Shown here piece by piece: positions 4,300 to 27,479 of a DNA stretch of 46,594 nucleotides (positions are counted from its first letter, which is position 1; every line of letters begins with the position of its first letter). The notes beneath the pieces are model-generated. The model had not been told where the DNA came from. It was given only the letters and a program-made list of their open reading frames with translations, and searched no databases. This stretch comes from Minisyncoccota bacterium (GTDB taxonomy: Bacteria; Patescibacteriota; Minisyncoccia; Phycocordibacterales; JACOZG01), in NCBI GenBank assembly GCA_020057185.1, contig JAGVGK010000045.1, forward strand, positions 1-46,594, given 5' to 3'. Position numbers and translations under genes: made by a program.

Positions 4300-4348
4300 A
4301 AAAAGAACCCCGCATCTTATCTGTGGTTAAACAGAAAAAATGCGGGGT
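4300..4348 (-). terminator. intrinsic terminator of the DGR target gene
   Basis: 18-bp inverted repeat 4307-4324 / 4331-4348 (2 mismatches) followed by a T-rich run on the minus strand. Confidence 0.75.
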
Positions 4349-4376
4349 CCGAGGACTAAGATCAAAGTGTCCAAGT

Positions 4377-4982
4377 TCAGTTTAGGACACAGTGACCGAG
4401 TCCACAGTGCGAACTTGCGAGCACAGCCGCGGGGTAGCTGACGCCCCAGTCGACGCCGAGCCAGTCGTAGCGCCAGAACCACCCGTCGCCGTACCAGCAG
4501 AGGAAACGGACGTAGAGGTCGCCATCCGAGTCGCGGTAGATAGTCCCCCAGAAGTAAACACGCTGGGTTTTCCATTCTTCGGGGATAAGCTCGGGATGCT
4601 TGAGTAGGAAGTCCAGCACATTGGCGTTCAGAACCCTCTGGCTCTTGAGTACCTCGCGTAGAACATCCCCCTTCATCCATTTGCCATCCTTCTGGTCGTC
4701 AGCGATATAAAGGGTGACGAGCGACTCTGTCCATTTGATAGGAACACCCTTCTGGTGTTCCTCCACCTTCCAACCCTCGGGCAGGAAGGGATCGGCGCAG
4801 CAGTCAATCACATGGTTGGCTTCCTTCGCCTCCCATATTCCCTTGAGGACATTGCGAACCCAAGCGAGATTGTCTCCCGTCGAGAGTTGCTTGACCAGCG
4901 CGGCATCCCATTTGCCCACTCGATTCATCGCCATTTCAAGCTCGTGCGCTTGACCGACACCCATTGTGAAGTCGTTAGACAT
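4377..4982 (-). CDS. DGR target protein (201 aa) with C-terminal variable region, probable C-type-lectin-like fold
   Basis: AGAAAGGAG Shine-Dalgarno before ATG at 4982; C-terminal YRDSDGDLYVRFLCWYGDGWFWRYDWLGVDWGVSYPAAVLA is encoded by the VR; fold is inferred from DGR precedent. Confidence 0.92.
   Translation of the reverse strand: MSNDFTMGVGQAHELEMAMNRVGKWDAALVKQLSTGDNLAWVRNVLKGIWEAKEANHVIDCCADPFLPEGWKVEEHQKGVPIKWTESLVTLYIADDQKDGKWMKGDVLREVLKSQRVLNANVLDFLLKHPELIPEEWKTQRVYFWGTIYRDSDGDLYVRFLCWYGDGWFWRYDWLGVDWGVSYPAAVLASSHCGLGHCVLN
4417..4539 (-). repeat. DGR variable repeat (VR)
   Basis: Copy of TR with 9 A>G, 7 A>T and 1 A>C changes; GC-rich invariant 3' end, then divergent IMH-like tail. 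Confidence 0.97.
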
Positions 4983-5152
4983 AGCTAACTTCTCCTTTCT
5001 GTCGTGAGACTTGTTCACTCGAACTCGTCTCGTCCCTTGTTTACGGCTTAGCACAATGCTTCGCCACAGCAGAGAAAGGCCTATAATCTAAGCCGTTTTC
5101 TGCTATGGCGAAACGCAAGTTGGGTATCAAAGAACTTCTCTATTCTTTCCCT

Positions 5153-5181
5153 ATTATACACCCGTCACTAACACTTGTCAA
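5153..5181 (-). promoter_or_regulatory. consensus sigma70 promoter of the DGR target gene
   Basis: TTGACA (5181-5176), 17-bp spacer, TATAAT (5158-5153). Confidence 0.8.
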
Positions 5182-5251
5182 TAGTCCGTAATGGTTCATA
5201 ATAAGTCATACTAATTGTCTCCAAATGCAAACTGTGCTAGAGTGGTCGGAT

Positions 5252-5488
5252 ATGGAAATCATTAAAACGATTTTGCCGTGGGTGCAGATTATTGTCGCCA
5301 TTGCCGTGGTCGTCGCCATTCTGCTTCAACGCAATGACGCCGCTTTGGGCGGGGTCTTCGGTGGTAGTGGTAGTGTCGCTCATACGAAACGAGGTTTGGA
5401 GCGCGGTCTCTTCGTCACCACGGTGGTTTTGGCGATCCTTTTTGTGATCACCGCGATTCTCTCTTTTCTCCTTCAAGCCACCGTTTAG
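5252..5488 (+). CDS. secG: preprotein translocase subunit SecG
   Basis: Two TM segments flanking ILLQ...LGGVFGG...TKRGLE; ATG at 5252 preferred. Confidence 0.93.
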   Translation: MEIIKTILPWVQIIVAIAVVVAILLQRNDAALGGVFGGSGSVAHTKRGLERGLFVTTVVLAILFVITAILSFLLQATV

Positions 5489-5500
5489 TTAGATGGTCTT

Positions 5501-7204
5501 ATGCCTTTAAAAGATAAAATTGCCCGCACGGTGAGCATGATGCCACCGCCACGGAAAAAGCTTTTTGTTATTTGTCTCGCCGTTTTTCTTGTCGGGATTT
5601 TGACTCTCTTGTGGCTCACGAATCAAGCTTGGCTCGTGTCGGTGCCGGTTAGTGGTAGTCAATATATTGAAGGCCTCGTGTCTACGCCCCGTTTCATCAA
5701 TCCTCTGCTCGCGAGTACCGCCGTGGAACGAGACCTCACGACTTTGGTTTATTCCGGTCTTCTCCGTAGTAGTGGCACCGGCGAATTTATTCCAGATTTA
5801 GCCGAATCGTATACCGTTTCGCCCGATGGTTTAACTTACAACTTCACTCTGCGACCCAACTTAGTCTGGCACGATGGCGAACCAGTCACGGCCGACGATA
5901 TAATCTTTACCATCACCAAAGCTAAGGATCCGGCAATTAGAAGTCCTCGGCGCGCCAGTTGGGAAGGCGTAGAAGTGGAAAAAATTGACGCTCAACATTT
6001 CGTTTTCAAATTGAAACAACCCTACGCTCTTTTTTTGGAAAATCTAACGCTCGGCATCCTCCCCGCACACCGGTGGCAGAAAATCACCACCGCCGGTTTC
6101 TCCTCCACCAATCTTAATCTCGAACCCGTCGGCACTGGCCCCTACCAAATTTCAAACATCAAACGCGACAGCGATAATTTGCCGTTAACTTATACACTTA
6201 CGCCCTTCTCTCATTTCGCCCTTGGTGAACCAAAAATTGCAAAAGTTATTATTCATTTCTATCTGAATGAAGAGGCACTCTTGGGGGCTTATAATCGGGG
6301 CGAGATTGACGCGATCAACGCGATTGATTCTCTCACCGTTCGCGCCCTCGAAAAAAATGGTGCCCGCGTTTTGACCACTACTCTCCCGCGCGTCTTCGGC
6401 ATCTTTTTCAACCAGAATCAGCAAAAACTTTTTACGCGACCGGAAGTTCGCGCCGCACTCGACGCGGCGGTTGATCGTCAAGCTCTGGTCGCGGAAGTTT
6501 TTAGTAATTATGCCAAGCCCCTCACTGGACCATTGCCACTCACTTTATTCCCGGAGGCAACTTCTAATCAAGCCACGACCAGTCCGGATGAAATTCTGAA
6601 GCGCGCCGGTTGGCAAAAAAATGTTACCAGTGGTAAATGGGAACTGCCGACCAAAAAGAAAGGCGAAGTTCCCCTCGCTTTGCGCTTCACCTTAACAACT
6701 TCCGACACACCAGAGCTCAAGGGGGTCGCCGAGTTGGTGAAGCAGAATTGGGAAGCGTTCGGTGCCACCGTTGATCTAAAAATCTTCGAATTGGGGGCGC
6801 TCAACGAGGTCATTATCCGACCGCGCGATTATGAGGCCCTCCTCTTCGGCGAAATTGTCGGCCGGAATCCTGATCTCTACTCCTTCTGGCACTCTGCTCA
6901 ACGACTTGATCCGGGTCTCAATATTGCCCTCTACACCAACATCACAGTTGACAAAATTCTAGATGAGATTAAAGTGGCTAGTACAACTGACCGCCGGGCT
7001 TCGGCTTATCAAGCTTTCGACACCGAAATTCGGAAGGATAAGCCAGCGGTTTTCCTCTACGCCCCTGATTTCTTGTATCTCGTTCCCCGATCAGTGGAGG
7101 GTATTAATTTAGGAATTATTAACACACCAGCCGAACGTTTCTTAGGTATTTATAAATGGTATATTAAGACCGATAAAGTTTGGCCAATTTTCGTAAATGA
7201 TTAA
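5501..7204 (+). CDS. peptide/nickel ABC transporter substrate-binding protein (SBP family 5)
   Basis: N-terminal TM, PDLAESY, WHDGEPVTADD, PVGTGPY motifs. Confidence 0.9.
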   Translation: MPLKDKIARTVSMMPPPRKKLFVICLAVFLVGILTLLWLTNQAWLVSVPVSGSQYIEGLVSTPRFINPLLASTAVERDLTTLVYSGLLRSSGTGEFIPDLAESYTVSPDGLTYNFTLRPNLVWHDGEPVTADDIIFTITKAKDPAIRSPRRASWEGVEVEKIDAQHFVFKLKQPYALFLENLTLGILPAHRWQKITTAGFSSTNLNLEPVGTGPYQISNIKRDSDNLPLTYTLTPFSHFALGEPKIAKVIIHFYLNEEALLGAYNRGEIDAINAIDSLTVRALEKNGARVLTTTLPRVFGIFFNQNQQKLFTRPEVRAALDAAVDRQALVAEVFSNYAKPLTGPLPLTLFPEATSNQATTSPDEILKRAGWQKNVTSGKWELPTKKKGEVPLALRFTLTTSDTPELKGVAELVKQNWEAFGATVDLKIFELGALNEVIIRPRDYEALLFGEIVGRNPDLYSFWHSAQRLDPGLNIALYTNITVDKILDEIKVASTTDRRASAYQAFDTEIRKDKPAVFLYAPDFLYLVPRSVEGINLGIINTPAERFLGIYKWYIKTDKVWPIFVND

Positions 7205-7211
7205 ATAAAAA

Positions 7212-8972
7212 ATGATGAGACCACCTCCTCGCCGACCACTACGACCGCGCGGCGACCAGTTAGAAAAGAAACCGATTCCCCCGCTCGCCCCGGGTGATAT
7301 TCGTATTATTCCGCTCGGCGGGGTCGAAGAGATCGGCAAAAATATGACCGCCATTGAAATGGACGGCGATATTATGGTGATTGACATCGGCTTCGCCTTC
7401 CCCGACGAGAATACGCCCGGAGTTGATTTCATCATTCCCGACACCACTTATCTCGAAGCGAACCGCGCGCGCGTCAAAGGGGTCGTTATCACGCACGGCC
7501 ACCTTGATCACACTGGCGGGATTTCTTATGTGATGCCGAAAATTGGCAATCCACCACTTTACACCAGGAACTTGACCGCCTTGATGATTAAAAAACGGCA
7601 AGAAGAATTTCCCCACCTCCCGCCCCTCGATATTATTGTCGTCGAAAAAGAGGAGCGAGTGAAGATTGGCAATTTCCGCGTCCACTTCTTCGGCGTCACG
7701 CACACCATTCCTGACTCGATGGGCGTAATTATTGAAACGCCTTACGGTCGGATTGTGAATCCGGGCGATTACAAACTCGACCTTGACACGGTAAACGGCA
7801 AACCGACGGAAGCGGAAGAAAAAGCTTATAGCATCTTCGATCAGGGCGAGACATTACTTTTGATGGCCGACTCGACCAACATTGAGAATCCGGGTTTCTC
7901 GCCACCCGAAAGTGAAGTGCACAAAAATCTTGAGACGATCATCAAGACCGTGAAGGGTCGGCTGATTATTGGAATGTTCGCCTCGCAATTTGAGCGAATT
8001 ATTAAAGTCCTAGAAATTGTGGAACGTTTAGGCCGGAAGATTGTCATCGAAGGTCGAAGTATGAAAACCAATGTGGAAGTCGCCCAGCTCGCGGGGATGT
8101 TAAAAATAAAAAAGGAAACGATTGTTCCCGTTCAAGAAGTAGATCAATATCCGCCAGAAAAGATCGTGGTCTTGGCGACCGGTGCGCAAGGCGAAGAATT
8201 CGCGGCGCTAATGCGGATGGCGACTAAGCAACATAAATATTTCCAATTTAAAAAAGGCGACACCGTCCTTCTCTCCTCTTCCATTATTCCGGGGAACGAA
8301 CGAACGGTGCAAAGATTGAAAGATAATATCGCGCGCCAAGGCGCGAAGATTGTTCACTACCGCACTTCCGAAGTTTATATTCACTCCTCCGGTCACGGTA
8401 ATCGCGGTGAGATCGAGTGGTTGCATCGGAAGATCAAACCGCATTTCTTCATTCCGATTCACGGTCATCATCAGAAGCTCCACGTCCACGCCGATCTGGC
8501 GCTAGAACTCGGCATGCCGGAAAAAAATATTGTCATTCCCGATAACGGCATGGTGATTGATATCACGGCGAAAGGAACGAAAATGCACGCGCTTAAAGAG
8601 ACCGTCTCAAGTCGGCTGGTGATGGTGGACGGTTCCGGCGCGGATAATGTAAAAGAAGTGGTGATTAAAGATCGGGTGATGCTCGCGCAAGAAGGCATCT
8701 TCGTTATCATTGCGATTATCAATCAGCAGACGGGTAAGGTGGTGAAGTCGCCCGACATCATCTCGCGCGGTTTCGTTTATCTGAAAGAATCTCAAGACTT
8801 ACTCCACTATGTTCGCCTAATGGTTAAACGGAAAATTGAAGACGCGACCTCGCGAATGAATCCGATCAACTTCGATTATGTGAAAAATATTCTCCGTGAA
8901 GAAATCGGCAAATATCTCTACCAAAAAACCCACTCCCGCCCGCTCGTCCTCCCCGTCTTGATTGAGGTGTAG
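7212..8972 (+). CDS. rnj: ribonuclease J
   Basis: PLGGVEEIGKNM, THGHLDHTGG metallo-beta-lactamase motif, HSSGH, PIHG. Confidence 0.95.
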   Translation: MMRPPPRRPLRPRGDQLEKKPIPPLAPGDIRIIPLGGVEEIGKNMTAIEMDGDIMVIDIGFAFPDENTPGVDFIIPDTTYLEANRARVKGVVITHGHLDHTGGISYVMPKIGNPPLYTRNLTALMIKKRQEEFPHLPPLDIIVVEKEERVKIGNFRVHFFGVTHTIPDSMGVIIETPYGRIVNPGDYKLDLDTVNGKPTEAEEKAYSIFDQGETLLLMADSTNIENPGFSPPESEVHKNLETIIKTVKGRLIIGMFASQFERIIKVLEIVERLGRKIVIEGRSMKTNVEVAQLAGMLKIKKETIVPVQEVDQYPPEKIVVLATGAQGEEFAALMRMATKQHKYFQFKKGDTVLLSSSIIPGNERTVQRLKDNIARQGAKIVHYRTSEVYIHSSGHGNRGEIEWLHRKIKPHFFIPIHGHHQKLHVHADLALELGMPEKNIVIPDNGMVIDITAKGTKMHALKETVSSRLVMVDGSGADNVKEVVIKDRVMLAQEGIFVIIAIINQQTGKVVKSPDIISRGFVYLKESQDLLHYVRLMVKRKIEDATSRMNPINFDYVKNILREEIGKYLYQKTHSRPLVLPVLIEV

Positions 8973-10621: not shown

Positions 10622-10736
10622 ACCGTTTACTGGATTTGCAAAATCGCCCTTTGCATAAACCAAGTTAAGAAATCAATATGATAAATAGCGCACGGTCGTG
10701 AATTATTTAGCATATCGCTTGAAAAATAAAAAGAGA

Positions 10737-10774: not shown

Positions 10775-10811
10775 GGATACTTTGTCCAACACCGAGTGTT
10801 GGACATTTTCC

Positions 10812-15649: not shown

Positions 15650-16537
15650 CTAATTTACCACCCCTAGCGCCACCATTTCTTGGCCCGGGCGAGAGATGGT
15701 CTCATCGGTGTAGCCGAGTACTATCGCGTTTTGGTTGGCAAATAATTCTTCCCCGCCTTCAATCCGAGCAATCAAATCCCCTTTTTTAATCACCTGCCCG
15801 GGCTCAACCAACATTTGGATGGGACCGGAAATTATCGGCTTGGGTTCATCGGAATAATTAAATATTTTACCCGTCGATCCAACACTCGATGTTGGAGTAT
15901 CATTAACATCGAGTGTTTTATTTTCGGCAATTAAACCAAAATGACAAAGAATCCGCAAAATTGCGTTAACACCAATTCTGACATTCTTCTCATCCACAAT
16001 ATAAGCGCCGCCGAGTTCGAGTGTTAGCGCGGGAATACCGATTTTTGTTAAACTGCCAGAGAGTGTCTGATTTAAAGTTTTGCTAATTTCTTGCACTGTC
16101 ACCAAGCCAGCCGAAAGAGCCATTCGGCTCAACCGAGCATGAAAATCGGGCAACATACTATTCCGATCATCGATTAGAGTGTAGGGAATAGAATTAATCC
16201 AATCATTATGAAGATCGAGAACCAAATCCGGTTTCGTTTCGATAATTGTTTGCCAAACATTGTGTACAATTTTTTGACCTAATGTGCCATCAACTTGTCC
16301 GGGAAACAAACGATTAAGATCCTCACCGGTCTCCGGCAATTCTCTAACTTTTTTATCCGCGCCGGTCTCGTTGACTAGGGGCAAAGCGTGTAAAGAACCT
16401 TTAACCAATTCCACCTTTTCTAATTCGGCAAATAATTTTTTGATTACGGCACCACCACCCGGTTCATCACCGTGAAGCGTGCCTGTGAGCCAAACCACTG
16501 GTCCATCAACCTTAGATTTTTTTTCTAGATAGGTCAT
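15650..16537 (-). CDS. succinylglutamate desuccinylase/aspartoacylase-family (M14-like) hydrolase
   Basis: HGDE, DLNRLFPG, LDLH, TLELG motifs. Confidence 0.88.
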   Translation of the reverse strand: MTYLEKKSKVDGPVVWLTGTLHGDEPGGGAVIKKLFAELEKVELVKGSLHALPLVNETGADKKVRELPETGEDLNRLFPGQVDGTLGQKIVHNVWQTIIETKPDLVLDLHNDWINSIPYTLIDDRNSMLPDFHARLSRMALSAGLVTVQEISKTLNQTLSGSLTKIGIPALTLELGGAYIVDEKNVRIGVNAILRILCHFGLIAENKTLDVNDTPTSSVGSTGKIFNYSDEPKPIISGPIQMLVEPGQVIKKGDLIARIEGGEELFANQNAIVLGYTDETISRPGQEMVALGVVN

Positions 16538-17564: not shown

Positions 17565-18008
17565 TTAATCGCGAGATAAAAATTGATCGAGACCCCAATA
17601 TCGCCCCGCCCGAATACTGGCAAAAGAGAGAAGCAAAAGCGCGTAGACAATGTGTTCATCCACGAGCCAAGCGTGGGCGTTAGGATAAGGGAAGGGACCA
17701 GCGGCAAAATAATAAAGAAGCATCAGCGCCACGCCAAGCAACGAACTTAAGCGCACAAACAAACCGAGAATCAACGAAAGACCGAGAATCGTCAAGCCCC
17801 ACTCATTGAGAAAATTAACGATCGGCAAAATCGTTGGATTCAGAAACAATTGATAAAAATTAGGAAAAGTTTTTGCCACCCCAATATAACCCGCCGCCGA
17901 CCAAGTCGAATCGAGCACTTTAGTAATCCCAGCGTAGAAAAACAAAATACCAAGCGCCACCCGCGTTAATAATAATGTCACCCGCGCCGACAAATTTAAG
18001 CTATTCAT
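17565..18008 (-). CDS. DoxX-family membrane protein (ATG at 18008 preferred)
   Basis: RVALGILFFYAGITK, E..GL.LILGLFVR, AGRYWGLD. Confidence 0.85.
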   Translation of the reverse strand: MNSLNLSARVTLLLTRVALGILFFYAGITKVLDSTWSAAGYIGVAKTFPNFYQLFLNPTILPIVNFLNEWGLTILGLSLILGLFVRLSSLLGVALMLLYYFAAGPFPYPNAHAWLVDEHIVYALLLLSFASIRAGRYWGLDQFLSRD

Positions 18009-18064
18009 ATACCGACTATTATAATCCAAAACTAGTTTCGTTGCGAGCCACATATCCAAAATCC

Positions 18065-18134
18065 TTGACTTTTAAACCCAGTTATGATAACCTTATGGGC
18101 AGAATCGTGAGGTAAGTCAGAATCGCGTGATTCT
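18065..18134 (+). promoter_or_regulatory. promoter and structured leader, copy 1 (homologous to 26364-26439)
   Basis: TTGACT-N17-TAACCT then ggcagaatcgt...atcgcgtgattct; leader 32/37 identical to copy 2. Confidence 0.7.
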
Positions 18135-18181
18135 CAGCTGAACCTTAAATTGAACGAGAAACGAAAACAAGGAGACCGAAA

Positions 18182-18388
18182 ATGTATGAGGTACAGAGAC
18201 GCATTCTCATTCTCAACGCCATGGAAGTGCAAATACACGCGTTGAGGGGAATCGTAGCGGCGGCAAATGTAGTTGTTGATGCACCAGGGACAACAAAATT
18301 TGAAGAGGAGGAATCATTCGCGCGGGATCTGATCATGGTAGGAAGGGGTGTTGTTAGTATGCTCCAGAAATGTGAGGCCCAAAAATAG
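18182..18388 (+). CDS. 68-aa orphan protein
   Basis: AAGGAG SD; bracketed by a promoter/leader and terminator that are duplicated at 26.4-26.7 kb. Confidence 0.65.
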   Translation: MYEVQRRILILNAMEVQIHALRGIVAAANVVVDAPGTTKFEEEESFARDLIMVGRGVVSMLQKCEAQK

Positions 18389-18414
18389 CGAAAACCCCCA
18401 GTGTTGACACAAAC

Positions 18415-18454
18415 AAAGCGCACGGCCTTCATGGGTAGGTGCGCTTTTTTCTTT
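18415..18454 (+). terminator. intrinsic terminator, copy 1
   Basis: aaagcgcac...gtgcgctttttt; 35/40 identical to 26706-26745. Confidence 0.8.
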
Positions 18455-18537
18455 GCCAAATTTCCCAAAGTTTGTCTATACCATAAAAAACACGGTCGTA
18501 GAATTTATGAGATACTAAAAAATCAAGTGGTTTTAAG

Positions 18538-20322
18538 TTATCGGCGCGAGCGGGCGCGGTCTATCTCGGTCAGATATTGTTTGCGGAGGCGGACACTCTT
18601 CGGTGTGATTTCTAAATATTCATCTTCCGCCATCGTCTCGAGCCCGCGTTCGATACTCAACTCGAAAGGTGGAACGAGATCAATCGCTTCATCCAAACCG
18701 GACGCGCGCATATTGCTTAACTGTTTGCCCTTGGTCGGATTGACCGTCATTTCTTCGCCCTTCGCGGTATTGCCAATCACCATTCCCTCATACACTTCAG
18801 TGGTCGGCGCGATGTAGAGCACTCCGCGATCTTGCAAATTCCAAAGCGCGAAACCGAGCGCCTTGCCCCCCGCCATCGAGATCATCGAGCCCACGGCGCG
18901 CCGACGAATCTCCCCGGCGTAAGGACGGAAACCGAGCACGCGTGAGGATATAATCCCCTCGCCCTTAGTATCAATTACAAATTGGTTTCGATAACCAAGC
19001 AAGCCACGGGTCGGTCCGACGAAAGTGAGCCGAAGAATTTCACCCGTCGGCCGAATATCTTGCACCACAAAACTGCGCAAACCCAATCGTTCAATAATTG
19101 TGCCTTGATATTCACTCGGCGTATCCACAATCACTTCTTCAAACGGTTCTTGCTTCACCCCATCCACTTCGCGAATAATGACTTGCGGTTGCGATACCTG
19201 CACTTCATAACCTTCGCGACGAATTGTCTCAAGCAAAATCGCGATGTGAAGTTCACCCCGACCATAGACGCGAAAACGCTCCGTGGAATTAAAATCAATT
19301 CGCAGACCAACATTAACTTCGAGCTCGCGCTCGAGGCGCTCGCGCAATTGTCGGGAGGTCACATATTTTCCCTCTTGCCCCGCGAATGGAGAATCATTAA
19401 CAAAAAAATCAAGGACAATCGTTGGCTCGTCAATCGCGATGGCGGGTAAGGGTTGAGCGTCGGGGTTAGTCGTCACGGTCTCACCGATGTCAATGTCTGA
19501 TAGGCCAGCGATGAGCACAATGTCACCAGCTTGGGCTTCGTCGGTCCCTACTCGTTGCAAACCACTGAAAGTAAAAATTTTAGTCAGTTGACCAGTACGC
19601 GTCGCGCCGTCGGGCTTCTTGACCCAAACCTTCGCCCCCGCTTTTACCACCCCTTCATAAACCCGCGCGACTGCGAGCCGACCGAGGAAATTATCGTAAG
19701 CGAGATTAAAAGGTTGAAGTCGGAGTGGTTGGTCAGCCGTTGAGTTAAACGAAGCAACAGGCACATATTCGAGAATCACATCCAGTAGCGGAGTGAGATC
19801 AGTGGACTCATCCGTGAGTGCGCGTTTGGCAATACCGGTTCGGCCAACCGCGTAAACCACCGGGAAATCAGCTTGCATATCAGTCGCACCAAGCTCGAAG
19901 AAAAGTTCCAACACTTCCTCATGACAGCGCGCCGGATCGGCGGCCGGTTTATCAATTTTATTAATCACGACGATTGGTTTCAATCCAAGCTCAAGTGATT
20001 TTTTCAAAACGAAACGAGTTTGAGGCATCGGTCCCTCTTGGGCATCCACAACGAGCAACACCGCATCCACCGACCGCAGGACTCGCTCTACTTCCGAGCC
20101 GAAGTCGGCGTGACCGGGCGTATCCACAATATTTATTTTTGTCCCCTTGTAGGTAACCGCGGCATTCTTGGCATAGATCGTAATCCCGCGTTCTTGCTCC
20201 AACGCGTTCGAATCCATCGTTACCCCTTCGCCCACCGCTTGTGTCTGGCGCAATAAAGCATCGGTCAAGGTGGTCTTGCCGTGGTCCACATGAGCGATAA
20301 TCGCGATATTTCTAATTTCCAT
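18538..20322 (-). CDS. typA: translational GTPase TypA/BipA
   Basis: RNIAIIAHVDHGKTTL, DTPGHADF, GRGELH, YEGMVIG, EITPKSVRLRK. Confidence 0.97.
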   Translation of the reverse strand: MEIRNIAIIAHVDHGKTTLTDALLRQTQAVGEGVTMDSNALEQERGITIYAKNAAVTYKGTKINIVDTPGHADFGSEVERVLRSVDAVLLVVDAQEGPMPQTRFVLKKSLELGLKPIVVINKIDKPAADPARCHEEVLELFFELGATDMQADFPVVYAVGRTGIAKRALTDESTDLTPLLDVILEYVPVASFNSTADQPLRLQPFNLAYDNFLGRLAVARVYEGVVKAGAKVWVKKPDGATRTGQLTKIFTFSGLQRVGTDEAQAGDIVLIAGLSDIDIGETVTTNPDAQPLPAIAIDEPTIVLDFFVNDSPFAGQEGKYVTSRQLRERLERELEVNVGLRIDFNSTERFRVYGRGELHIAILLETIRREGYEVQVSQPQVIIREVDGVKQEPFEEVIVDTPSEYQGTIIERLGLRSFVVQDIRPTGEILRLTFVGPTRGLLGYRNQFVIDTKGEGIISSRVLGFRPYAGEIRRRAVGSMISMAGGKALGFALWNLQDRGVLYIAPTTEVYEGMVIGNTAKGEEMTVNPTKGKQLSNMRASGLDEAIDLVPPFELSIERGLETMAEDEYLEITPKSVRLRKQYLTEIDRARSRR

Positions 20323-20346
20323 AATAAAAATTATGTTTTTGAAAAT

Positions 20347-20598
20347 TTATTTATAAACATCTTTTCTGTGACCAATTTTCAAAATAACAATCGAGTCATC
20401 TTGAACATCAAATAAAATTCTATAGTCACCAGCCCGGAAACGAAAAGACCCAAAATGAAAATCCTGTAATTTATCGGCGAAACGAAGTGGGTTTGATTGT
20501 GAAGTATAAAGAATTAGCTTCTCGTTAATTCGTTTCTGAATATTCTTGTCGAGTTTTTTAAGCTGACGAAAAACTGAAGGAGCGAAAACAATCCTCAT
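20347..20598 (-). CDS. RelE/ParE-family type II toxin
   Basis: 83 aa, FRFRAGDYRILF and KIGHRKDVYK motifs. Confidence 0.9.
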   Translation of the reverse strand: MRIVFAPSVFRQLKKLDKNIQKRINEKLILYTSQSNPLRFADKLQDFHFGSFRFRAGDYRILFDVQDDSIVILKIGHRKDVYK

Positions 20599-20600
20599 GT

Positions 20601-20813
20601 TTATAAGCGTAAATGTTCCAAGGCTTTCTCCATAGTAACAAATTTGCCCTCACGGACTTCTTGGCGAGCGCGAGCGATATCTTTGGGCAGTTTTTTGGAT
20701 TGCGCCATCTGAAGATCTTCTCTCATTCGTTCATATTCCTCGATCGGCAAAACTACCACGCCTTTTTGCTTGGCCACTCGCTCAAGAGAAAGAGTAATAT
20801 TCCCTGATGCCAT
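20601..20813 (-). CDS. putative antitoxin
   Basis: 70 aa directly upstream of the toxin; VVLPIEEYERMREDL resembles Phd/YefM-like antitoxins. Confidence 0.75.
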   Translation of the reverse strand: MASGNITLSLERVAKQKGVVVLPIEEYERMREDLQMAQSKKLPKDIARARQEVREGKFVTMEKALEHLRL

Positions 20814-20857
20814 GGGTTCTATCTTATCACACTTAGTTTTTTATTTCAAGCCGTTCA

Positions 20858-20902
20858 TGTCAAGGCACCGCCTTGCCAATGGTCACGCCTTGCCAATGGT
20901 CA
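20858..20902. repeat. CAAGG-N5-CCTTG palindrome with a 17-bp tandem duplication
   Basis: caaggcaccgccttg at 20861-20875; cgccttgccaatggtca at 20869-20885 and 20886-20902. Confidence 0.75.
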
Positions 20903-21008
20903 ACGCATCTCGTTTGTTATTAATTGGGCACATAAAAAACCACGCTATAAGTTTCGCTCTGACAACAACTTGCTATCGGAACACTGACAGTTCAATATAT
21001 CGGGAGTA

Positions 21009-21536
21009 ATGAAACCAGAACACTTTGGTCAATTAATGAGACAATATTTGTCGCCGATTTATAATTTTGCCTATCGGCTGACTAATAGCGCCGATTTGGC
21101 TAATGATATTACTCAAGAAACCTTTATCAAAGTGTGGCAGAACCTCAAACAATTTAATGAGGCTAAAAGCTTCAAACCATGGCTCTTCACGATTGCTCGC
21201 CACACGGCGATTGATTGGTTGCGAAAACGTAAAATGATTCCTTTCTCTGATTTGAGAAACCAAGAAGACGGGGGAAATAATTTTGAGAATAATATTCCTG
21301 ACGAGCTTCCTCTGCCTGATGAATTATTCCGGCGAGCGGAACTCATTTCCCTTCTCGAACAGGCGCTCGCTGAACTGCCGATCAACGATCGAACAATTAT
21401 TCTCCTACATCAAACCGAAAAGCTAACTTTCGCCGAAATCGCCGAGATTCTTAATCAGCCCATGAACACGGTCAAGAGCCGTTATCGCCGGGCGCGCGTG
21501 GCTCTTCGACAATTTTTGATAATTGCACCAAAATAG
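21009..21536 (+). CDS. ECF-family RNA polymerase sigma factor
   Basis: DITQETFIKVW, FKPWLFTIARH region 2; EIAEILNQPMNTVKSRYRRAR region 4. Confidence 0.93.
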   Translation: MKPEHFGQLMRQYLSPIYNFAYRLTNSADLANDITQETFIKVWQNLKQFNEAKSFKPWLFTIARHTAIDWLRKRKMIPFSDLRNQEDGGNNFENNIPDELPLPDELFRRAELISLLEQALAELPINDRTIILLHQTEKLTFAEIAEILNQPMNTVKSRYRRARVALRQFLIIAPK

Positions 21537-21558
21537 TCATCGCTCTCGTATACTTGAT

Positions 21559-21939
21559 ATGGATCAAATATTTAAACACTTGAAGATCATCGCGCCACCG
21601 AGTAATCTCGAGCGAATAATTTTGACCCGCGTGAGCTTTATTGTCCGACGACGATTTGCTTTTCGCGGACTCCTCGCTTTGGGAGCGTTCAGTGGCGTCA
21701 TTTGGTCTTTGCCCTTAATCGGTGTGGCAATTACTGAATCAGGTTTTTATTCTTATCTTTCTCTTTTTATTTCGGACAGTGGTTTGGCTTTAACTTACTG
21801 GCGAGAACTCTCGCTCACCCTCGTTGAATCAATCCCGCTTTTCACTCTAATCATCTTTTTTGGTTTAGTCACTTTCTTCTTCTGGATCATCCCTCGAGTG
21901 GTTGATGACGCGCAATTGGTTTTATCACCAGTTAATTAA
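21559..21939 (+). CDS. membrane protein, putative anti-sigma factor
   Basis: Immediately downstream of the ECF sigma gene; hydrophobic segments; ATG at 21559 preferred. Confidence 0.65.
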   Translation: MDQIFKHLKIIAPPSNLERIILTRVSFIVRRRFAFRGLLALGAFSGVIWSLPLIGVAITESGFYSYLSLFISDSGLALTYWRELSLTLVESIPLFTLIIFFGLVTFFFWIIPRVVDDAQLVLSPVN

Positions 21940-21949
21940 TCAACTAATT

Positions 21950-22393
21950 ATGAACTACAAAGATTCAACGCAATCAAAAAAGTTTCGGGGTATCGTGATT
22001 GGTTTTGGCATCGCCACTTTTACTCTTTTAGTTTTTCGAGCGGGGATTGTGGTTGGTTATCGGAAAGCTCATTTCTCGGCTCGGCTCGGTGATAATTACT
22101 CCCGTGCTTTTGGCAATCGACCAACGGACTTTCCTTTTGGGATGATGGCGAGTGACCTGCCGGGCGGACATGGCACCGTGGGGAAAATTGTCGGAATCAC
22201 CTTACCAACCTTCGTCGTCGCGAGTCCTGATAATGTCGAGAAAATCGTTTTGATCAAAGCGGATACGATCATTCGCCGTTGGCGTGATACGATCGCTTCT
22301 TCTTCACTCATTATCAACGATTCTGTCGTCGTTTTAGGAACGCCTAATGACCAGGGCGAAATCGAAGCGCGATTAATCCGAACTATAAAATGA
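21950..22393 (+). CDS. membrane-anchored hypothetical protein
   Basis: N-terminal TM and beta-rich C-terminus; its stop overlaps the next start. Confidence 0.7.
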   Translation: MNYKDSTQSKKFRGIVIGFGIATFTLLVFRAGIVVGYRKAHFSARLGDNYSRAFGNRPTDFPFGMMASDLPGGHGTVGKIVGITLPTFVVASPDNVEKIVLIKADTIIRRWRDTIASSSLIINDSVVVLGTPNDQGEIEARLIRTIK

Positions 22394-24012
22394 AAAAATA
22401 TTTTCAAGCCCATAAGTTTATCAGTACGCTAATTATTTTGGTGCTAATCGTGGCTGGTTGGCGAATCGTGAGAGCTTGGAGTGGAACTGGAAACGAAACA
22501 AGATATGTGTTTGCCAAAGTGGAACGCGGGGATCTCATTTCTTCGGTCACCGGCACGGGGCAAGTCTCGACCTCCAATCAAATTGAGTTGAAAAGTAAGG
22601 TCTCGGGTGATGTGGTTTACATTGGAGCGGTTAATGGTCAAGCGGTCGGCGTCGGCGCGCTAATTGTGAAGCTCGATGATCGCGACGCGCAAAAAGCCGT
22701 TCGGGATGCCGAAGTTAATTTGGCCAGCACGAAATTAGCTTTAGAAAAGACCAAACTGCAACAAGACCAACAATTGCGCGGTGATATCCTAAATAAAAAT
22801 TACGAAGATGGTCTGGCTATTTTAGCCAATCTCTACGGCGAGTTTGCCACCACTTTGGATGCTTTGGACAAAATTTTCTTCGACACTGACTTGTCAGACA
22901 ATCAAGACAAAAATAATATCGAGTATTATGCAAATTACAACAAAGCTTTCGCCGATGTGCCTCAACACCTCGAACAATTATATCAGGCGACTAAAGTGTT
23001 ATATCAACAAAGTCTGGCTGATTATCAATTGGCGAAAAGAGGTAGTGGCAACGATCGTGCCGAGGCGATTCAAAGTGCCTATGACTTAACAGTTAAAACC
23101 GCCGAGCTGATTAAGACCGGCCGAGATGTTGTCCGTAATCTGGAGGATCGTCTGACTGACTCGGGTGCCGTTCACACTAAACAAACAACCATCACCAGTC
23201 ATTCAACCGATCTTACTACTTATGCGACGGCGATCGATGATTATTTAAAAGATTTACTTATCATCAATAATACAATCAACAGCCAACGCGACACTGTGGA
23301 AACATACCCACTTGATAGCCAAGCCCAAGAATTGACGATTAAACAACGGGAGAATTCACTCCTAGATGCTCGAGAAAACCTCGCTGACTATTCCATCCGT
23401 GCGCCATTCAGTGGATTAATTACCAAACTAGATATTAAGAAGACCGATTCGGTGAGCAACGGCACAATTATTGGCACGCTTGTCACCAGACAAAAAATTG
23501 CGGAGATTTCTCTCAACGAAGTGGACGCCGTGAAAATTAAAGTTGGTAATAAAGTCACCCTCACTTTCGACGCCGTGGAAGGTTTAAGCCTCACGGGCGT
23601 GGTTCAAGAAATAGATTTACTTGGCACCATTACGCAAGGTGTCGTTACTTACAATGTTAAAATTAGTTTTGACCTTCAGCCCAGTGGCAATGAACAGGTC
23701 AAACCCGGCATGAGCGCGAGCGCCGAGATTATCACGGAAGTTAAACAAAATATTCTGACGGTGCCCAACAGCGCAGTTAAAGTTAGTGGCCAAACAAATT
23801 ATGTGGAAATGTTTGATCAGCCACGTTTATCTTCACTCACTCCACCCCGCCGACAATCAGTCGAGATCGGCGTTGCCAATGACGATAGTACGGAAATTAC
23901 GAGCGGGTTGAAAGAAGGCGACGAGATCGTGATTCGGACCATTACGGCTCAAACGACACCGACGACTAGCGCCGCGCCGAGCATCTTCGGTGGAAGCGGT
24001 AACCGACGCTGA
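22390..24012 (+). CDS. efflux periplasmic adaptor (MacA/HlyD-like membrane fusion protein)
   Basis: VERGDL..SVTGTG, IRAPFSG, KPGMSA, EITSGLKEGD; long helical hairpin. Confidence 0.9.
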   Translation: MKKYFQAHKFISTLIILVLIVAGWRIVRAWSGTGNETRYVFAKVERGDLISSVTGTGQVSTSNQIELKSKVSGDVVYIGAVNGQAVGVGALIVKLDDRDAQKAVRDAEVNLASTKLALEKTKLQQDQQLRGDILNKNYEDGLAILANLYGEFATTLDALDKIFFDTDLSDNQDKNNIEYYANYNKAFADVPQHLEQLYQATKVLYQQSLADYQLAKRGSGNDRAEAIQSAYDLTVKTAELIKTGRDVVRNLEDRLTDSGAVHTKQTTITSHSTDLTTYATAIDDYLKDLLIINNTINSQRDTVETYPLDSQAQELTIKQRENSLLDARENLADYSIRAPFSGLITKLDIKKTDSVSNGTIIGTLVTRQKIAEISLNEVDAVKIKVGNKVTLTFDAVEGLSLTGVVQEIDLLGTITQGVVTYNVKISFDLQPSGNEQVKPGMSASAEIITEVKQNILTVPNSAVKVSGQTNYVEMFDQPRLSSLTPPRRQSVEIGVANDDSTEITSGLKEGDEIVIRTITAQTTPTTSAAPSIFGGSGNRR

Positions 24013-24027
24013 TTAAAAGTATCAACT

Positions 24028-24702
24028 ATGATCGAGATAAAGAATATTACTAAGACCTATCGCGACGGCGACATTAGTTTCCAAGCTCTCGACAATGTTA
24101 GTTTTCAAATCAAGGATGGAGAATTCGTCGCGATTATGGGACCGTCCGGCTCGGGCAAATCAACCTTGATGCATATTCTCGGCGCGCTCGATACGCCCAC
24201 CAGCGGTACTTATTTGCTCGATGGTCAAGATGTTTCCACGCTCTCGGATAATGAACTCGCCGACATTCGCCAAGATAAAATTGGCTTCGTCTTCCAATCA
24301 TTCAATCTCTTGCCAAGAACCACCGTGTTGCGTAATGTGATGTTGCCCTTGATCTATGAAGGTGTACGGGGCGAGGAGCGGAAGCGACGAGCCGAGGTCG
24401 CCCTACGGGCGGCGGGACTCGATGCGACACATTGGTCTCATCTCTCTAATCAATTGTCCGGCGGTCAAATCCAGCGGGTGGCGATCGCGCGGGCGCTTGT
24501 TAACAATCCAACCCTCATCCTCGCCGATGAACCGACGGGAAATCTTGATTCGAAAACCGGCGAGATTGTCTTAAGTACTTTCCAAAAATTAAATACTGAA
24601 CACGGTCGCACGATCGTCCTCATCACTCATGAACGCGAGGTCGCCGAATATGCCAAACGAATTATTTTTATTAAAGATGGTACCCTCGTCAAACAATTAT
24701 GA
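24028..24702 (+). CDS. MacB/LolD-type ABC ATP-binding protein
   Basis: GPSGSGKST, LSGGQIQRVAIARAL, ILADEPTGNLD. Confidence 0.95.
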   Translation: MIEIKNITKTYRDGDISFQALDNVSFQIKDGEFVAIMGPSGSGKSTLMHILGALDTPTSGTYLLDGQDVSTLSDNELADIRQDKIGFVFQSFNLLPRTTVLRNVMLPLIYEGVRGEERKRRAEVALRAAGLDATHWSHLSNQLSGGQIQRVAIARALVNNPTLILADEPTGNLDSKTGEIVLSTFQKLNTEHGRTIVLITHEREVAEYAKRIIFIKDGTLVKQL

Positions 24703-25910
24703 ACCCTTTTGACTTGCTTCAAGAAACTTATCTCTCCCTCTCGGCCAACAAAGTTCGGTCCGCCTTAACAATTCTCGGCATCGTCATCGGTATCAGTTCG
24801 GTGATCGCGATGGTCTCGATCGGCCAGGGCGCCAAAGCGCAAATTCAATCGAGCATCGAAGGTCTCGGTTCGAATCTGCTAACTATCTTGCCGGGAGTAG
24901 TTCAACCCGGTCGAGGGATTGTCTCTTCGGGTCGAGGGTCGGCGCAAACATTGGAAAATAAAGACCTCCCGGTTCTTGATTCAATTGAGGGGATTGAATC
25001 AGTCTCACCTGAACTCTCGCGCCGTTTCCAAATCACCGCCGGCACGGGCAACAACACCAACACGACCGTCAACGGCGTTCTGCCGACTTACGCCTCAGTT
25101 CGTAACTTAACAATCGCCGAGGGTACCTTCATCAGTGAGAGTAATATCCACAGTCTCGGCCGACAAGTGGTACTCGGCGCGACTGTTGCCACCGATCTTT
25201 TCGGTGACACTCCCCCGCTCGGTAAAACAATTAAAATTAATAAAACTAATTTCCGAATCGTTGGTCTTCTAACCAAGAAGGGTGGCGCGGGTTTCTCGGG
25301 TCCCGACGATATGGTCATCGTGCCTCTGACCACGATGCAGAAAATTTTGGCGGGCGTGGATTATTTATCCACCATCTCCATCAGCGTCACCGATAAAAAT
25401 CGGATGAATGAAGTCCGCGACGCGGTGAGTGACGCCTTGCTTACTCGCCATCGGGTGGCCGAGGCCGACTTCTCAATTATTTCCCAAGAAGATATTCTCG
25501 GCACCTTGTCGCAAGTGGTGGACACCTTCACCATCTTCCTCGCTTCGATCGCCGGCATCTCGCTCGTTGTCGGCGGGATTGGGATTATGAATATGATGCT
25601 CACCACTGTCACCGAACGCACGCGAGAGATCGGTTTGCGTAAAGCGATTGGCGCGAAGCGCCGAGACATCAATCGGCAATTCTTAGTCGAAGCGGTCGCC
25701 TTAACCTTCATCGGTGGGTTTTTGGGAGTTATTCTCGGCTGGCTGATCGCCGCAACCGTCACTTATCTCGGCTTGATTCAAACCCAAGTATCTCTAATGT
25801 CCGTCCTCTTGGCCTTCGGCGTCTCCACCGCCATTGGCATTATCTTCGGCTATTATCCCGCCCAACGCGCCGCTCGACTAAATCCAATCGATGCGCTAAG
25901 ATATGAATAA
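24699..25910 (+). CDS. MacB-type ABC permease
   Basis: RSALTILGIVIG, GGIGIMNMM, ERTREIGLRKAIGA, PIDALRYE. Confidence 0.95.
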   Translation: MNPFDLLQETYLSLSANKVRSALTILGIVIGISSVIAMVSIGQGAKAQIQSSIEGLGSNLLTILPGVVQPGRGIVSSGRGSAQTLENKDLPVLDSIEGIESVSPELSRRFQITAGTGNNTNTTVNGVLPTYASVRNLTIAEGTFISESNIHSLGRQVVLGATVATDLFGDTPPLGKTIKINKTNFRIVGLLTKKGGAGFSGPDDMVIVPLTTMQKILAGVDYLSTISISVTDKNRMNEVRDAVSDALLTRHRVAEADFSIISQEDILGTLSQVVDTFTIFLASIAGISLVVGGIGIMNMMLTTVTERTREIGLRKAIGAKRRDINRQFLVEAVALTFIGGFLGVILGWLIAATVTYLGLIQTQVSLMSVLLAFGVSTAIGIIFGYYPAQRAARLNPIDALRYE

Positions 25911-25936
25911 TTATTAGTTAAGGAAAAATAATTTTT

Positions 25937-26353
25937 ATGAAGAAAATAATTGTTCTGGTTATCGTTATCCTGTTCGTTGGCTTCTTTTGGTTCAAAGGGC
26001 AAGACACTATCGCGCCAACACCAGTACCAACCGAAGGGACGCTCACCACGGCACCCGCGCCAGTCGTCCCAACCACAGCCGTCAAAGAGTTCACGGTCAT
26101 TGGCAGTAACTTCACCTTCACACCCAACACGATAGAAGTGAAGCCGGGCGACACAGTTAAAATCACTTTCCAAAGTGCGACCGGTTTCCACGACCTAACC
26201 CTTGACGAATTTGCGGTCGCGACTAAACAACTTAAGGCCGGCGAATCGGAAACGGTACAATTTGTCGCCGATAAAACCGGCTCGTTCGAATACTACTGTT
26301 CCGTCGGCAATCACCGCGCGATGGGAATGAAGGGTACCCTGACGGTGAAATAA
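25937..26353 (+). CDS. cupredoxin-domain (plastocyanin-like) exported protein
   Basis: Signal/TM, Pro/Thr linker, H...YYCSVGNHRAMGM type-1 copper ligands. Confidence 0.9.
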   Translation: MKKIIVLVIVILFVGFFWFKGQDTIAPTPVPTEGTLTTAPAPVVPTTAVKEFTVIGSNFTFTPNTIEVKPGDTVKITFQSATGFHDLTLDEFAVATKQLKAGESETVQFVADKTGSFEYYCSVGNHRAMGMKGTLTVK

Positions 26354-26363
26354 TCTTACGGGG

Positions 26364-26439
26364 TTGACTTTCAGACCCAATTATAATAACCTAATGGGCA
26401 GAGGCAGAATCGTAAGGCAAGTCGAGATCGCGTGATTCT
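26364..26439 (+). promoter_or_regulatory. promoter and structured leader, copy 2
   Basis: TTGACT-N17-TAACCT and leader homologous to 18065-18134, with a duplicated ggcaga. Confidence 0.7.
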
Positions 26440-26478
26440 TGACGAGATTTTGAAGGAAATTAAAAAAGGAGAATGGGC

Positions 26479-26679
26479 ATGTTACTTGTGGGTCTTCTGG
26501 TGGTTTCGATTGGTTCTTCCATGCTTGGCGCCAGTATTGAACATGATAGTCTAATGAAACGATACCCTCATTTCGACTGGAGGGAAGGTGCTGGGTATAG
26601 CCCATTTATGTTTTGGTTCGGAGTACTCGGTATTTTTGCGGGAGTATTTGTTGCCTTCATTCCTCAATTGTTTAACTAA
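26479..26679 (+). CDS. small two-TM orphan membrane protein (start 26479 or 26473)
   Basis: AAAGGAG SD 7 nt before ATG 26479; two hydrophobic segments. Confidence 0.65.
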   Translation: MLLVGLLVVSIGSSMLGASIEHDSLMKRYPHFDWREGAGYSPFMFWFGVLGIFAGVFVAFIPQLFN

Positions 26680-26705
26680 CTGGAAGTGGACGAGTGGCTT
26701 AGTAT

Positions 26706-26745
26706 AAAGCGCACGACCTTCGCGGGTCCGTGCGCTTTTTTCTTT
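26706..26745 (+). terminator. intrinsic terminator, copy 2
   Basis: aaagcgcacg...cgtgcgctttttt. Confidence 0.8.
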
Positions 26746-26831
26746 ACTCTTTAATTTCTACTCTTAAACTATTTACGGTCGTAAAAATCTTAAGAGTTAA
26801 CTTTTTATTGATTATAGTATAGGATAACTGA

Positions 26832-27479
26832 ATGAGAATTAATCGTTATCTGGCACTCAAAAAATACGCCACCCGTCGCGGGGCGGATAAGTTGATCGAG
26901 GTGGGGTTGGTAACGATCAACGGCCGGGTGGCGAAAATCGGTGAGACGGTCACCGAAACTGATTGGGTGGAAGTGAGGCAAGCGAAAAAACCGAAAACTT
27001 ACACTTATCTCGCCTATCACAAACCGTGTGGTGAAGTGACCAGTTCACCACTGCCCGGACTCTTCCCCATCGGCCGACTCGACAAAGATTCCAGTGGTTT
27101 GCTTCTCCTCACTGACGATGGCCGAATCACTGATCGCCTCCTCAATCCCGAGCATACTCACGAGAAAGAATATGTCGTGACCGCGAGAGAACCATTGCGC
27201 TCAAACTTCGCTCGACAAATGTCGGGCGGGGTTCTCATCGGTGATTACACAACCCGACCCTGCCAAGTGGAAACAATTAACGATTACACTTTCCGAATTA
27301 TTTTAACCGAGGGCAAAAAACATCAAATCAGACAAATGTGTTCGGCGCTAAGCGTGACGGTCACCGATCTAACTCGCACGCGCATTATGAATCTTCGACT
27401 CGGTCACCTTACCGCGGGCACCCATCGTCCCCTCACCGCGCCGGAATTATCCACCCTTCTCAAAAGTCTCGGGTTGTGA
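26832..27479 (+). CDS. RsuA/RluB/RluF-family pseudouridine synthase
   Basis: S4 domain MRINRYLA, IGRLDKDSSGLLLLT, LTEGKKHQIR. Confidence 0.93.
   Translation: MRINRYLALKKYATRRGADKLIEVGLVTINGRVAKIGETVTETDWVEVRQAKKPKTYTYLAYHKPCGEVTSSPLPGLFPIGRLDKDSSGLLLLTDDGRITDRLLNPEHTHEKEYVVTAREPLRSNFARQMSGGVLIGDYTTRPCQVETINDYTFRIILTEGKKHQIRQMCSALSVTVTDLTRTRIMNLRLGHLTAGTHRPLTAPELSTLLKSLGL

Follow-up and report, generated by a model that had tools for sequence, protein, structure and literature searches.

We analysed a stretch of 46,594 nucleotides, contig C12 (hereafter the window), from the genome of a Patescibacteria organism of the Candidate Phyla Radiation (CPR); this genome, G000, comprises 782,866 bp (~0.78 Mb) in 46 contigs, with 46% G+C and 98.8% completeness. 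The window holds two short units on the plus strand, A (18065-18454) and B (26364-26745), 8.3 kb apart, which have a promoter-like element, a leader, a Shine-Dalgarno (SD) sequence and a terminator in common and differ in their open reading frames (ORFs). Unit A lies between a doxX-like gene (17565-18059, minus strand; Pfam DoxX, E 1.5e-8) and the convergent gene typA/bipA (18538-20322, minus strand; Pfam GTP_EFTU and BipA_C), whose orthologues are 84-97% identical in all five congeners, G001 to G005, that we compared with G000 site by site. Unit B lies between a cupredoxin-like gene (25937-26353, plus strand; Pfam Copper-bind and Cupredoxin_1) and a gene for an rluB-like pseudouridine synthase (26832-27479, plus strand; Pfam PseudoU_synth_2 and S4) with orthologues in four of the five congeners. 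Within one Patescibacteria family, the non-coding frame shared by A and B is found repeatedly between core genes, at intergenic hot spots where its presence varies and its mostly orphan ORF, the cargo, differs from genome to genome.

In both units the frame opens with the promoter-like element TTGACT-N17-TAACCT (18065-18093 in A, where the 17-nt spacer has TG at -15/-14, and 26364-26392 in B), identical at 25 of 29 positions (z 8.0 versus shuffles). Its -35 element, its spacing and 30 genome sites of the similar type TTGAC-N15-17-TGnTAnnnT suggest that it acts as a promoter. The leader follows at 18094-18160 in A (covariance-model match of 68.3-69.8 bits) and at 26393-26465 in B (match at 26399-26465, 65.4-70.7 bits), where it carries a 6-nt GGCAGA duplication relative to A. 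A core of 37 nt, GGCAGAATCGT..ATCGCGTGATTCT, is identical at 32 positions when counted by eye on the sequence and is topped in both units by ATC-GCGT-GAT; across the leader segment 38 of 53 positions agree (z 7.2 versus shuffles), and a 21-nt leader pattern occurs twice in the window, with no occurrence expected by chance. The SD sequence AAGGAG stands at 18169-18174, 7 nt before the ATG of ORF A, and at 26466-26471 in B. The two terminators (18415-18454 and 26706-26745) are identical at 35 of 40 positions (z 9.6 versus shuffles) and fold at -18.3 kcal/mol (z -4.8) in A and -20.1 kcal/mol (z -4.5) in B, with six U residues after each. The terminator pattern has exactly two occurrences, in the window as in the whole genome, and none is expected by chance in the window.

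Between the SD sequence and the terminator the resemblance stops. ORF A (18182-18388, 68 amino acids) is predicted by eye to be soluble and helical, and ORF B (26473-26679, 68 amino acids) has, by eye, two hydrophobic segments; neither has a Pfam match. Translation of ORF B more likely starts at the ATG at 26479, giving 66 amino acids, since this codon is 7 nt from the SD sequence and the database protein is 66 amino acids long. The two ORFs have no similarity (BLASTP E 0.84; DNA alignment z -0.1 versus shuffles), whereas the non-coding flanks of A and B are 86-88% identical. An earlier note on this DNA had picked out the promoters, leaders, SD sequences, ORFs, terminators and distal palindromes and had called the ORFs unlike; we recover each of these parts at its place, and the ORF comparison bears that description out.

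A leader RNA family upstream of small genes

A search with the top of the leader hairpin, ATCGCGTGAT, yielded two further copies in the genome (C27:11564-11630 and C30:20183-20249), for a total of four in G000. A first covariance model, built from these four, detected 16 copies, spread over 8 of 61 relatives that all belong to one family, and a second (R2), built from 16 copies, gave 18 matches in 9 of the 31 family genomes (G000 among them; genera g1, g6 and g11), one of them weak (E 0.0098). The model searches also covered 150 other genomes of the order, none of which had a match under filters stricter than those of the family search, as well as metagenome and viral contigs. A strict leader pattern retrieved just two records in genome contigs and two in metagenome contigs, and both leader-bearing metagenome contigs match model R2. 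None of the 14 viral contigs retrieved by a relaxed leader pattern matches R2, and the pattern of the 3' module (the hairpin and terminator behind the cargo) had no viral matches.

The leader is a structured 5' untranslated region (UTR) RNA of ~65 nt with compensatory changes, a new motif that is specific to this lineage. A 5' single strand (RGYRGAA) leads into stem P1 (GAGGU/ACCUU), an internal loop (UAR/UGRA) and stem P2, which is capped by the nearly invariant AUCGYGUGAU (AUCGCGUGAU in unit A). In an alignment of 16 sequences, 92.5% of cells pair, 8 of the 12 pairs have compensatory double changes, none of 500 shuffles reaches as high a covariation score, and slid registers pair at 29-53%; the unpaired nucleotides are conserved as well. 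The many G-U pairs indicate that it is the sense-strand RNA that folds in this way. Placement is constant too, with 18 of 20 copies lying 10-30 nt upstream of an SD sequence and a same-strand ORF. Invariant loops, covarying stems and no expression platform together suggest that a trans-acting factor recognises the leader. An alternative pairing of the 5' AGAAUC segment with the 3' arm of P2 was rejected, having 70.7% pairing, no double changes and a score no better than shuffles. The variant leader that G005 carries after its xer gene forms an AGAAUC-type hairpin following an internal deletion.

Rfam 15 returned only tRNA when run over the whole window at gathering score, and no match on the leaders when run over three unit loci at E values up to 5; a weak Atu_C9 match over terminator B (22.9 bits against a cut-off of 40) was read as terminator likeness. 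At the level of its listings, a literature search gave no published description of the leader motif. Comparative genomics has uncovered orphan cis-regulatory RNA motifs upstream of hypothetical genes (e.g. Weinberg et al. 2017, PMC5737381). Motifs of this kind share with our leader a short, covariation-supported structure with conserved loops, a position in the 5' UTR of diverse genes and a narrow taxonomic range; our leader differs in being absent from Rfam 15, in preceding genes that are all small and unrelated, in having a promoter and a terminator conserved along with it, and in having no expression platform. In regulons of the type formed by iron-responsive elements and iron regulatory proteins (IRE/IRP), one conserved UTR hairpin occurs in unrelated mRNAs and is bound by one protein. 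The likeness to our leader would be one of mechanism only, in that unrelated messages share a hairpin whose apical loop is invariant and which also has an internal loop; there is no homology, and our leader, unlike the IRE, is a bacterial 5' UTR with a putative binding factor.

Other classes of hairpin leader, with the same promoter type, stand before small ORFs elsewhere in G000 (C1:8380, C16:16886, C30:11946, C22:5696 and C32:8775; also C3:18549, C5:1406 and C16:20396), one class beginning RGCAGTCAAYG.. and another GGATGGTTGG.. Since several of the 30 promoter sites precede such leaders and small ORFs, the ATCGCGTGAT leader would be one class within a general small-gene pattern, and small genes in G000 seem generally to carry structured leaders. 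A near-identical unit promoter (TTGACTTTTAAACCTAGATATGCTAACCT) at C16:27185-27213 comes right after a tRNA-like sequence and is followed by a different leader, with the contig end close by.

Behind 18 of the 20 leaders, an A-rich linker and an SD sequence are followed by an ORF of 43-134 amino acids that fills the space up to the terminator; the leaders at loci L020 and L042 have a tiny ORF or none after them (no ORF of at least 30 amino acids). At the same two loci an ORF of 300-332 amino acids with an N-terminal Cys-rich stretch lies after the leader (L042 502-1500 and L020 1724-2626). We withdrew a reading of these long ORFs as insertion sequence transposases; they have no Pfam family above cut-off and the pair is barely alike (E 0.01).

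Among 18 cargoes compared with one another no pair is alike at E < 0.05, and none of the 15 scanned has a Pfam family above cut-off. Judged by such searches, cargoes A and B are near-orphans: each is missing from the 30 other family genomes and matches only itself in a word-indexed set of 5.8 billion proteins. HMMER over 1.84 billion representatives gave cargo A one relative, a protein of 58 amino acids (P0003; 46% identical, pairwise E 1e-14). A search of 400 other genomes of the order did not recover P0003, and it has no viral relative. The match makes cargo A look like a genuine protein under constraint. A run of 68 codons would be open by chance with a probability of 0.014 for A and 0.031 for B. 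For two cargoes, homologues stand behind other leaders: that of L018 (genus g6) is 60% identical to G000:C1:8485-8793, and that of C27 is 45% identical to a gene of G015 at a different locus. By this evidence cargo would be older than the frame and separable from it.

Contents of four core-gene sites in related genomes

We compared four core-gene sites (rpsI-grpE, cupredoxin-rluB, typA-doxX and the site after xer) in up to six genomes and one metagenome contig (L041), and in congeners these hold the frame with other cargo, hold another insert, or are empty. At the first site the gene order in G000 is rplM-rpsI-unit-grpE-dnaK. A leader lies downstream of rpsI in G000, G002, G003, G004, G005 and L041, and directly upstream of grpE in G000, G004, G005 and L041; in total the site has eight leader copies in six lineages, with eight different downstream ORFs. 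An AT-rich ORF of ~65 amino acids in G004 at this hot spot (L012 1560-2170, minus strand) is membrane-like by eye, and an ORF in G003 (L017 400-940, minus strand) resembles, also by eye, a PemK/MazF-type toxin.

At cupredoxin-rluB, G000 has unit B with its cargo of two predicted transmembrane segments; G004 has the promoter and the 5' half of the leader as in B, a terminator identical to that of B at 40 of 40 positions and, as cargo, a zinc ribbon of 81 amino acids; G001 and G002 are empty, with ~17-30 bp between the genes, and G003 has other content. At typA-doxX, G002 is empty, the start of doxX being ~35 bp from the typA stop. The unit of G005 combines a leader that lacks the hairpin with a cargo of ~95 amino acids, and G004 has an unrelated ORF of ~170 amino acids without a leader. 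After xer, the cargo is 48 amino acids long in G000 and more than 110 in G005, where it follows the variant leader, and G001 is empty. From this comparison, small accessory genes seem to enter, leave and replace one another at shared sites. The earlier note had proposed a conserved expression chassis with a cargo that is not fixed, and this holds well beyond A and B, with four copies in G000, 18 in 9 of the 31 family genomes and 18 cargoes unlike one another; the doxX-typA and cupredoxin-rluB loci, which it had singled out for syntenic comparison, hold the frame with other cargo or are empty in congeners. Of the two outcomes that it had named as counting against its reading, a plain duplication (two copies only, with ORFs that prove remote homologues) is at odds with the further copies, and a cargo fixed across relatives is at odds with cargo that differs among them.

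In the closest pair, G000 and G004, rluB and the cupredoxin gene agree at 82 of 160 four-fold degenerate sites (51%). The cargo DNA of the two genomes aligns with a score of -32, against -37.3 +/- 6.5 for shuffles, and the products are 66-68 and 81 amino acids long. When the two units are aligned, similarity ends within the leader hairpin and returns exactly at the terminator. A cargo that cannot be aligned, set beside 51% neutral-site identity and a terminator identical at 40 of 40 positions, favours replacement of the cargo segment in this pair over drift by point divergence.

Palindromes, 3' modules and recombinase genes

A palindrome centred on ACGGTCGT lies 37 nt past terminator A and 29 nt past terminator B (centres at 18492-18499 and 26775-26782), with flanks CATAAA/TTTATG in the first case (18482-18509, arm family c) and CTCTTAA/TTAAGAG in the second (26761-26796, arm family b; RNA fold z -2.7). 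The earlier note had taken it for a part of the cassette. It is a separate genome-wide intergenic repeat of at least 23 copies that happens to adjoin both units, and the orthologous unit of G004 at the rluB site is without it. Cores of the form ACG(GT/AC)CGT number 47 in the genome, 15 of them with at least 11 of 18 complementary flanking positions. In the 23 copies inspected, 21 lie outside ORFs of at least 90 amino acids and most are ~20-120 nt from a gene end. They form four arm families (a-d), whose arms vary and stay complementary, and stand at times in arrays of two or three with a related CACGATCGTG core. Besides the copies beside A and B, the repeat is found at 10692-10699 of the window and on contigs C8, C16, C24, C26, C29, C32, C33, C34, C40 and C45. 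The orientation of the GT/AC centre is independent of gene strand, and Rfam has no match on the palindrome arrays.

Repetitive extragenic palindromic (REP) sequences and bacterial interspersed mosaic elements (BIME) are repeated extragenic palindromes. The ACGGTCGT repeat resembles them in its dozens of intergenic imperfect palindromes, its sub-families, its arrays of two or three and its position near gene ends; it differs in having a conserved centre (ACG-GT/AC/AT-CGT) and variable arms. In the copy beside B the right arm, TTAAGA, is the -35 of TTAAGA-17-TATAGT (26790-26818), a promoter-like site for rluB. Readings of ACGGTCGT as a promoter pair, an extracytoplasmic function (ECF) sigma promoter, a CRP-like site, parS or dif were rejected by eye for a misfit in spacing or conservation pattern.

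A hairpin, GTCAACAC-TCG-GTGTTGAC, often precedes the terminator. The 3' module of unit A (18393-18454) consists of a remnant of the CAACAC..GTGTTGAC hairpin and the terminator, and matches the 3' module of the G004 unit at 81% over 58 nt by BLAST. A BLAST search with the 61-nt 3' module gave matches in 18 of the 31 family genomes and at eight places in G000, many of which cover the palindrome only. In G000 the module also stands behind small ORFs without a leader, and the supposition that terminator and 3' hairpin are specific to the units has to be given up. The palindrome, (G)TC(C/A)AACAC-NNN-GTGTTG(G/A)AC, has 14 copies in G000 (window 10787-10801 and 15880-15894; C4, C16, C27, C30, C31, C40 and C41) and is conserved across genera (18 of the 31 family genomes). 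Copies often immediately precede intrinsic terminators, and one (C16:16333) falls within a coding region; a REP-like or an uptake-sequence-like element is a possible identity. A different terminator hairpin, CCCCGTTAGAGGT-NNN-ACCTCTAACGGGG, is repeated in G000 on C27 (L009 ~1570-1610) and in the C6:8389 region, and at L042 (~290-330), and abuts the -35 of the next unit promoter.

The sole tyrosine recombinase of the genome (PF00589), with XerC/D-type domains, is encoded on another contig than the window, C30. It is 79-88% identical in four of the five congeners, with or without units, and in G001 the site beside the gene is empty. Where filled and empty sites could be set side by side (typA-doxX and cupredoxin-rluB), the junctions have neither a target-site duplication nor a shared boundary motif. 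A dedicated gene-cassette system, which the earlier note had raised, loses ground with these results: boundary motif and target duplication are missing, and the only tyrosine recombinase is of XerC/D type and is present independently of the units.

The matches to the Xer-like gene at G003:C4:192-1079 and G005:C59:1265-2155 have one in-frame TAA each. In G000 (C30:20000-23720; locus L090 ~4000-7720) the gene has on one side a leader unit and a DnaA-box-like TTATCCACA stretch, and on the other four ORFs without a Pfam family, with the shared 3' module at the end of two; this region may be an accessory islet near the origin.

Explanations for a variable cargo in a conserved frame

Phage morons are autonomous promoter-ORF-terminator units inserted between conserved genes. 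The units described here are alike in being self-contained, with variable accessory cargo, and in lying between genes that are adjacent in relatives, as the empty sites of G002 (typA-doxX), G001 and G002 (cupredoxin-rluB) and G001 (after xer) attest. Unlike morons, they stand beside cellular core genes (DoxX, TypA, cupredoxin, RluB, S9, GrpE and Xer) and not beside phage genes, and they share a conserved structured leader and a 3' module, with none of the 14 viral pattern matches passing the leader model.

We lean, by somewhat more than even chances, towards the view that A and B are copies of a lineage-specific, autonomous, moron-like small-gene module in a cellular chromosome, the cargo of which is swapped by homologous recombination under shared control through the leader. 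Such a module would comprise a sigma-70-type promoter, the ~65-nt structured leader, an A-rich linker, a strong SD sequence, one short ORF, a 3' hairpin and an intrinsic terminator. The function of promoter, leader and terminator, together with recombination among copies, would keep the frame similar, while cargo would be replaced by homologous recombination with DNA of the population, through crossovers in the conserved leader and terminator or in flanking core genes and with no dedicated recombinase. Recombination via the frame or the flanking core genes seems the most economical mechanism, and cargo turnover probably proceeds in this way. The leader would be a cis-acting post-transcriptional element bound by a shared trans factor, likelier a protein than a metabolite, that could place the accessory small proteins under common control. 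A further proposal, which we regard as possible and hold with considerably less confidence, makes the chassis a portable landing pad, its ends acting as homology arms between which small genes, population-derived or newly arisen, are swapped; this would amount to an integron-like function without an integrase, with one post-transcriptional regulator acting via the leader.

Several observations weigh against the moron-like module with recombining cargo. A generic sigma-70 and terminator scanner called neither the promoters nor the terminators of A and B; it missed the promoters because TAACCT shares just three of six positions with TATAAT, and the terminator stems of both units are bulged. Transcription start, 3' end and translation of the units are all predicted from sequence. 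Because the alignment used for covariation was fitted to the model and its sequences are related, it somewhat overstates the support for the leader structure. No expression platform was found, the SD sequence being unpaired in the predicted folds, and hairpin-less leaders (at the typA site of G005 and at C27:7120 of G000) imply that some units can do without the hairpin. The four G000 cargoes have codon-usage scores of 0.007-0.091, at the low end of the distribution for native genes (mean 0.295, sd 0.129), and in two of the four frame 0 is not the best codon frame; such low scores fit foreign or young genes. The case for recombination is made of mosaic patterns, and the conserved arms are short. 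Fast evolution in situ is excluded just for G000 versus G004, with indels weakening that yardstick and the other pairs saturated. The genomes, finally, are metagenome-assembled, with 6% contamination in G004.

Other explanations divide over what has changed and by what means. The units might be a vertically inherited regulon, a 'nursery' of the sort that the earlier note had also considered: ORFs would evolve at extreme speed or originate de novo in situ, the frame would be under selection, and the ORF would only have to stay open. This would account for the isolation of cargoes A and B among the family genomes and in the protein set, for the 15 cargoes without a Pfam family, for codon scores that fall between coding and non-coding values, and for units at the same sites in several lineages. 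We think it unlikely, given that the cargo of the closest pair is less alike than its neutral sites and differs in length, that cargo A has a distant relative 46% identical to it, and that homologues of two cargoes occur in other genera, where different leaders precede them. Less probable again is that the transcripts are non-coding RNAs, or that the leader alone is functional and the ORFs incidental. The leader is indeed the sole part conserved across genera, two leaders (L020 and L042) lack an ORF of at least 30 amino acids, and the codon signal is weak; yet 18 of 20 copies combine a strong SD sequence at the correct spacing with an ORF spanning the interval from leader to terminator, open frames of such length are unlikely by chance, and homologues at the protein level exist for the cargoes of unit A, C27 and L018. 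We give this explanation very little weight.

Separate modules whose cargo varies, together with sites that are empty in relatives, also call to mind a true site-specific cassette system, akin to integrons or pdif modules, in which the palindrome or the hairpins would be sites for a tyrosine recombinase. Integron gene cassettes have an attC site, depend on IntI and are promoterless, being expressed from Pc. Our units resemble them in a variable ORF within a repeated non-coding frame, in sites that are empty or filled and in an imperfect palindrome 3' of the ORF; they differ in that no IntI, attI or Pc was found, that each has its own promoter-like element (a presumed promoter) and terminator, and that they are scattered and not gathered in one array. 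No attC-like site was seen at the boundaries compared, and in the palindrome, a genome-wide repeat, it is the centre that is conserved and the arms that vary, the opposite of attC. The conserved 8-bp centre of the palindrome next to both units, the position of the C30 unit directly downstream of the only tyrosine recombinase, and what may be a pair of units in the rpsI-grpE interval of G004 and G005 would speak for such a system. We nevertheless judge it improbable: the palindrome stands at no fewer than 23 intergenic places, mostly beside ordinary genes, is missing from the orthologous G004 unit and occurs once per unit; boundary motif and target duplication are lacking; the XerC/D-type recombinase is present in four of the five congeners, including genomes in which the adjoining site is empty; and every unit has its own promoter. 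Least credible of all is a plain segmental duplication of one small gene with later divergence of its coding part. Two copies 8.3 kb apart on the same strand, with ORFs of equal length (68 codons) and very similar flanks, are what it would leave behind, but the ORFs share no similarity between flanks that are 86-88% identical, one is soluble while the other has two hydrophobic segments, and 16 further unrelated cargoes occupy the same frame.

CPR bacteria have very small genomes, and gene regulation and gene gain in them are almost uncharted. The leader is a new, searchable RNA motif that flags small accessory proteins missed by gene callers and family databases. At the four core-gene sites each unit-bearing genome has a different cargo in a regulatory frame that is almost unchanged, in a small sample of the genus. 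If cargo is indeed exchanged via the frame, cassette-like gene flux would have a simple route that needs no recombinase, and the frame would also provide ready-made native expression parts for organisms without genetic tools. Should exchange not be borne out, there would still be a leader RNA that is new and lineage-specific, and a set of accessory-gene hot spots, useful but ordinary results.

The stretch between units A and B has further genes of its own. A ParE toxin and Phd-YefM antitoxin pair (20347-20813, minus strand) lies directly upstream of typA, with ParE at E 1.3e-10 and Phd below the Pfam cut-off. It is followed at 21009-25910 (plus strand) by an ECF sigma factor, two ORFs without a Pfam family and an HlyD/ABC/MacB-FtsX transporter. 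In both G001 and G002 typA directly adjoins cupredoxin-rluB, whereas in G000 ~6.5 kb, made up of the 21009-25910 block and the ParE/Phd pair, separates typA from rluB, and the gap in G003 is similar. This block, present in G000 and absent from G001 and G002, is an indel among the congeners.

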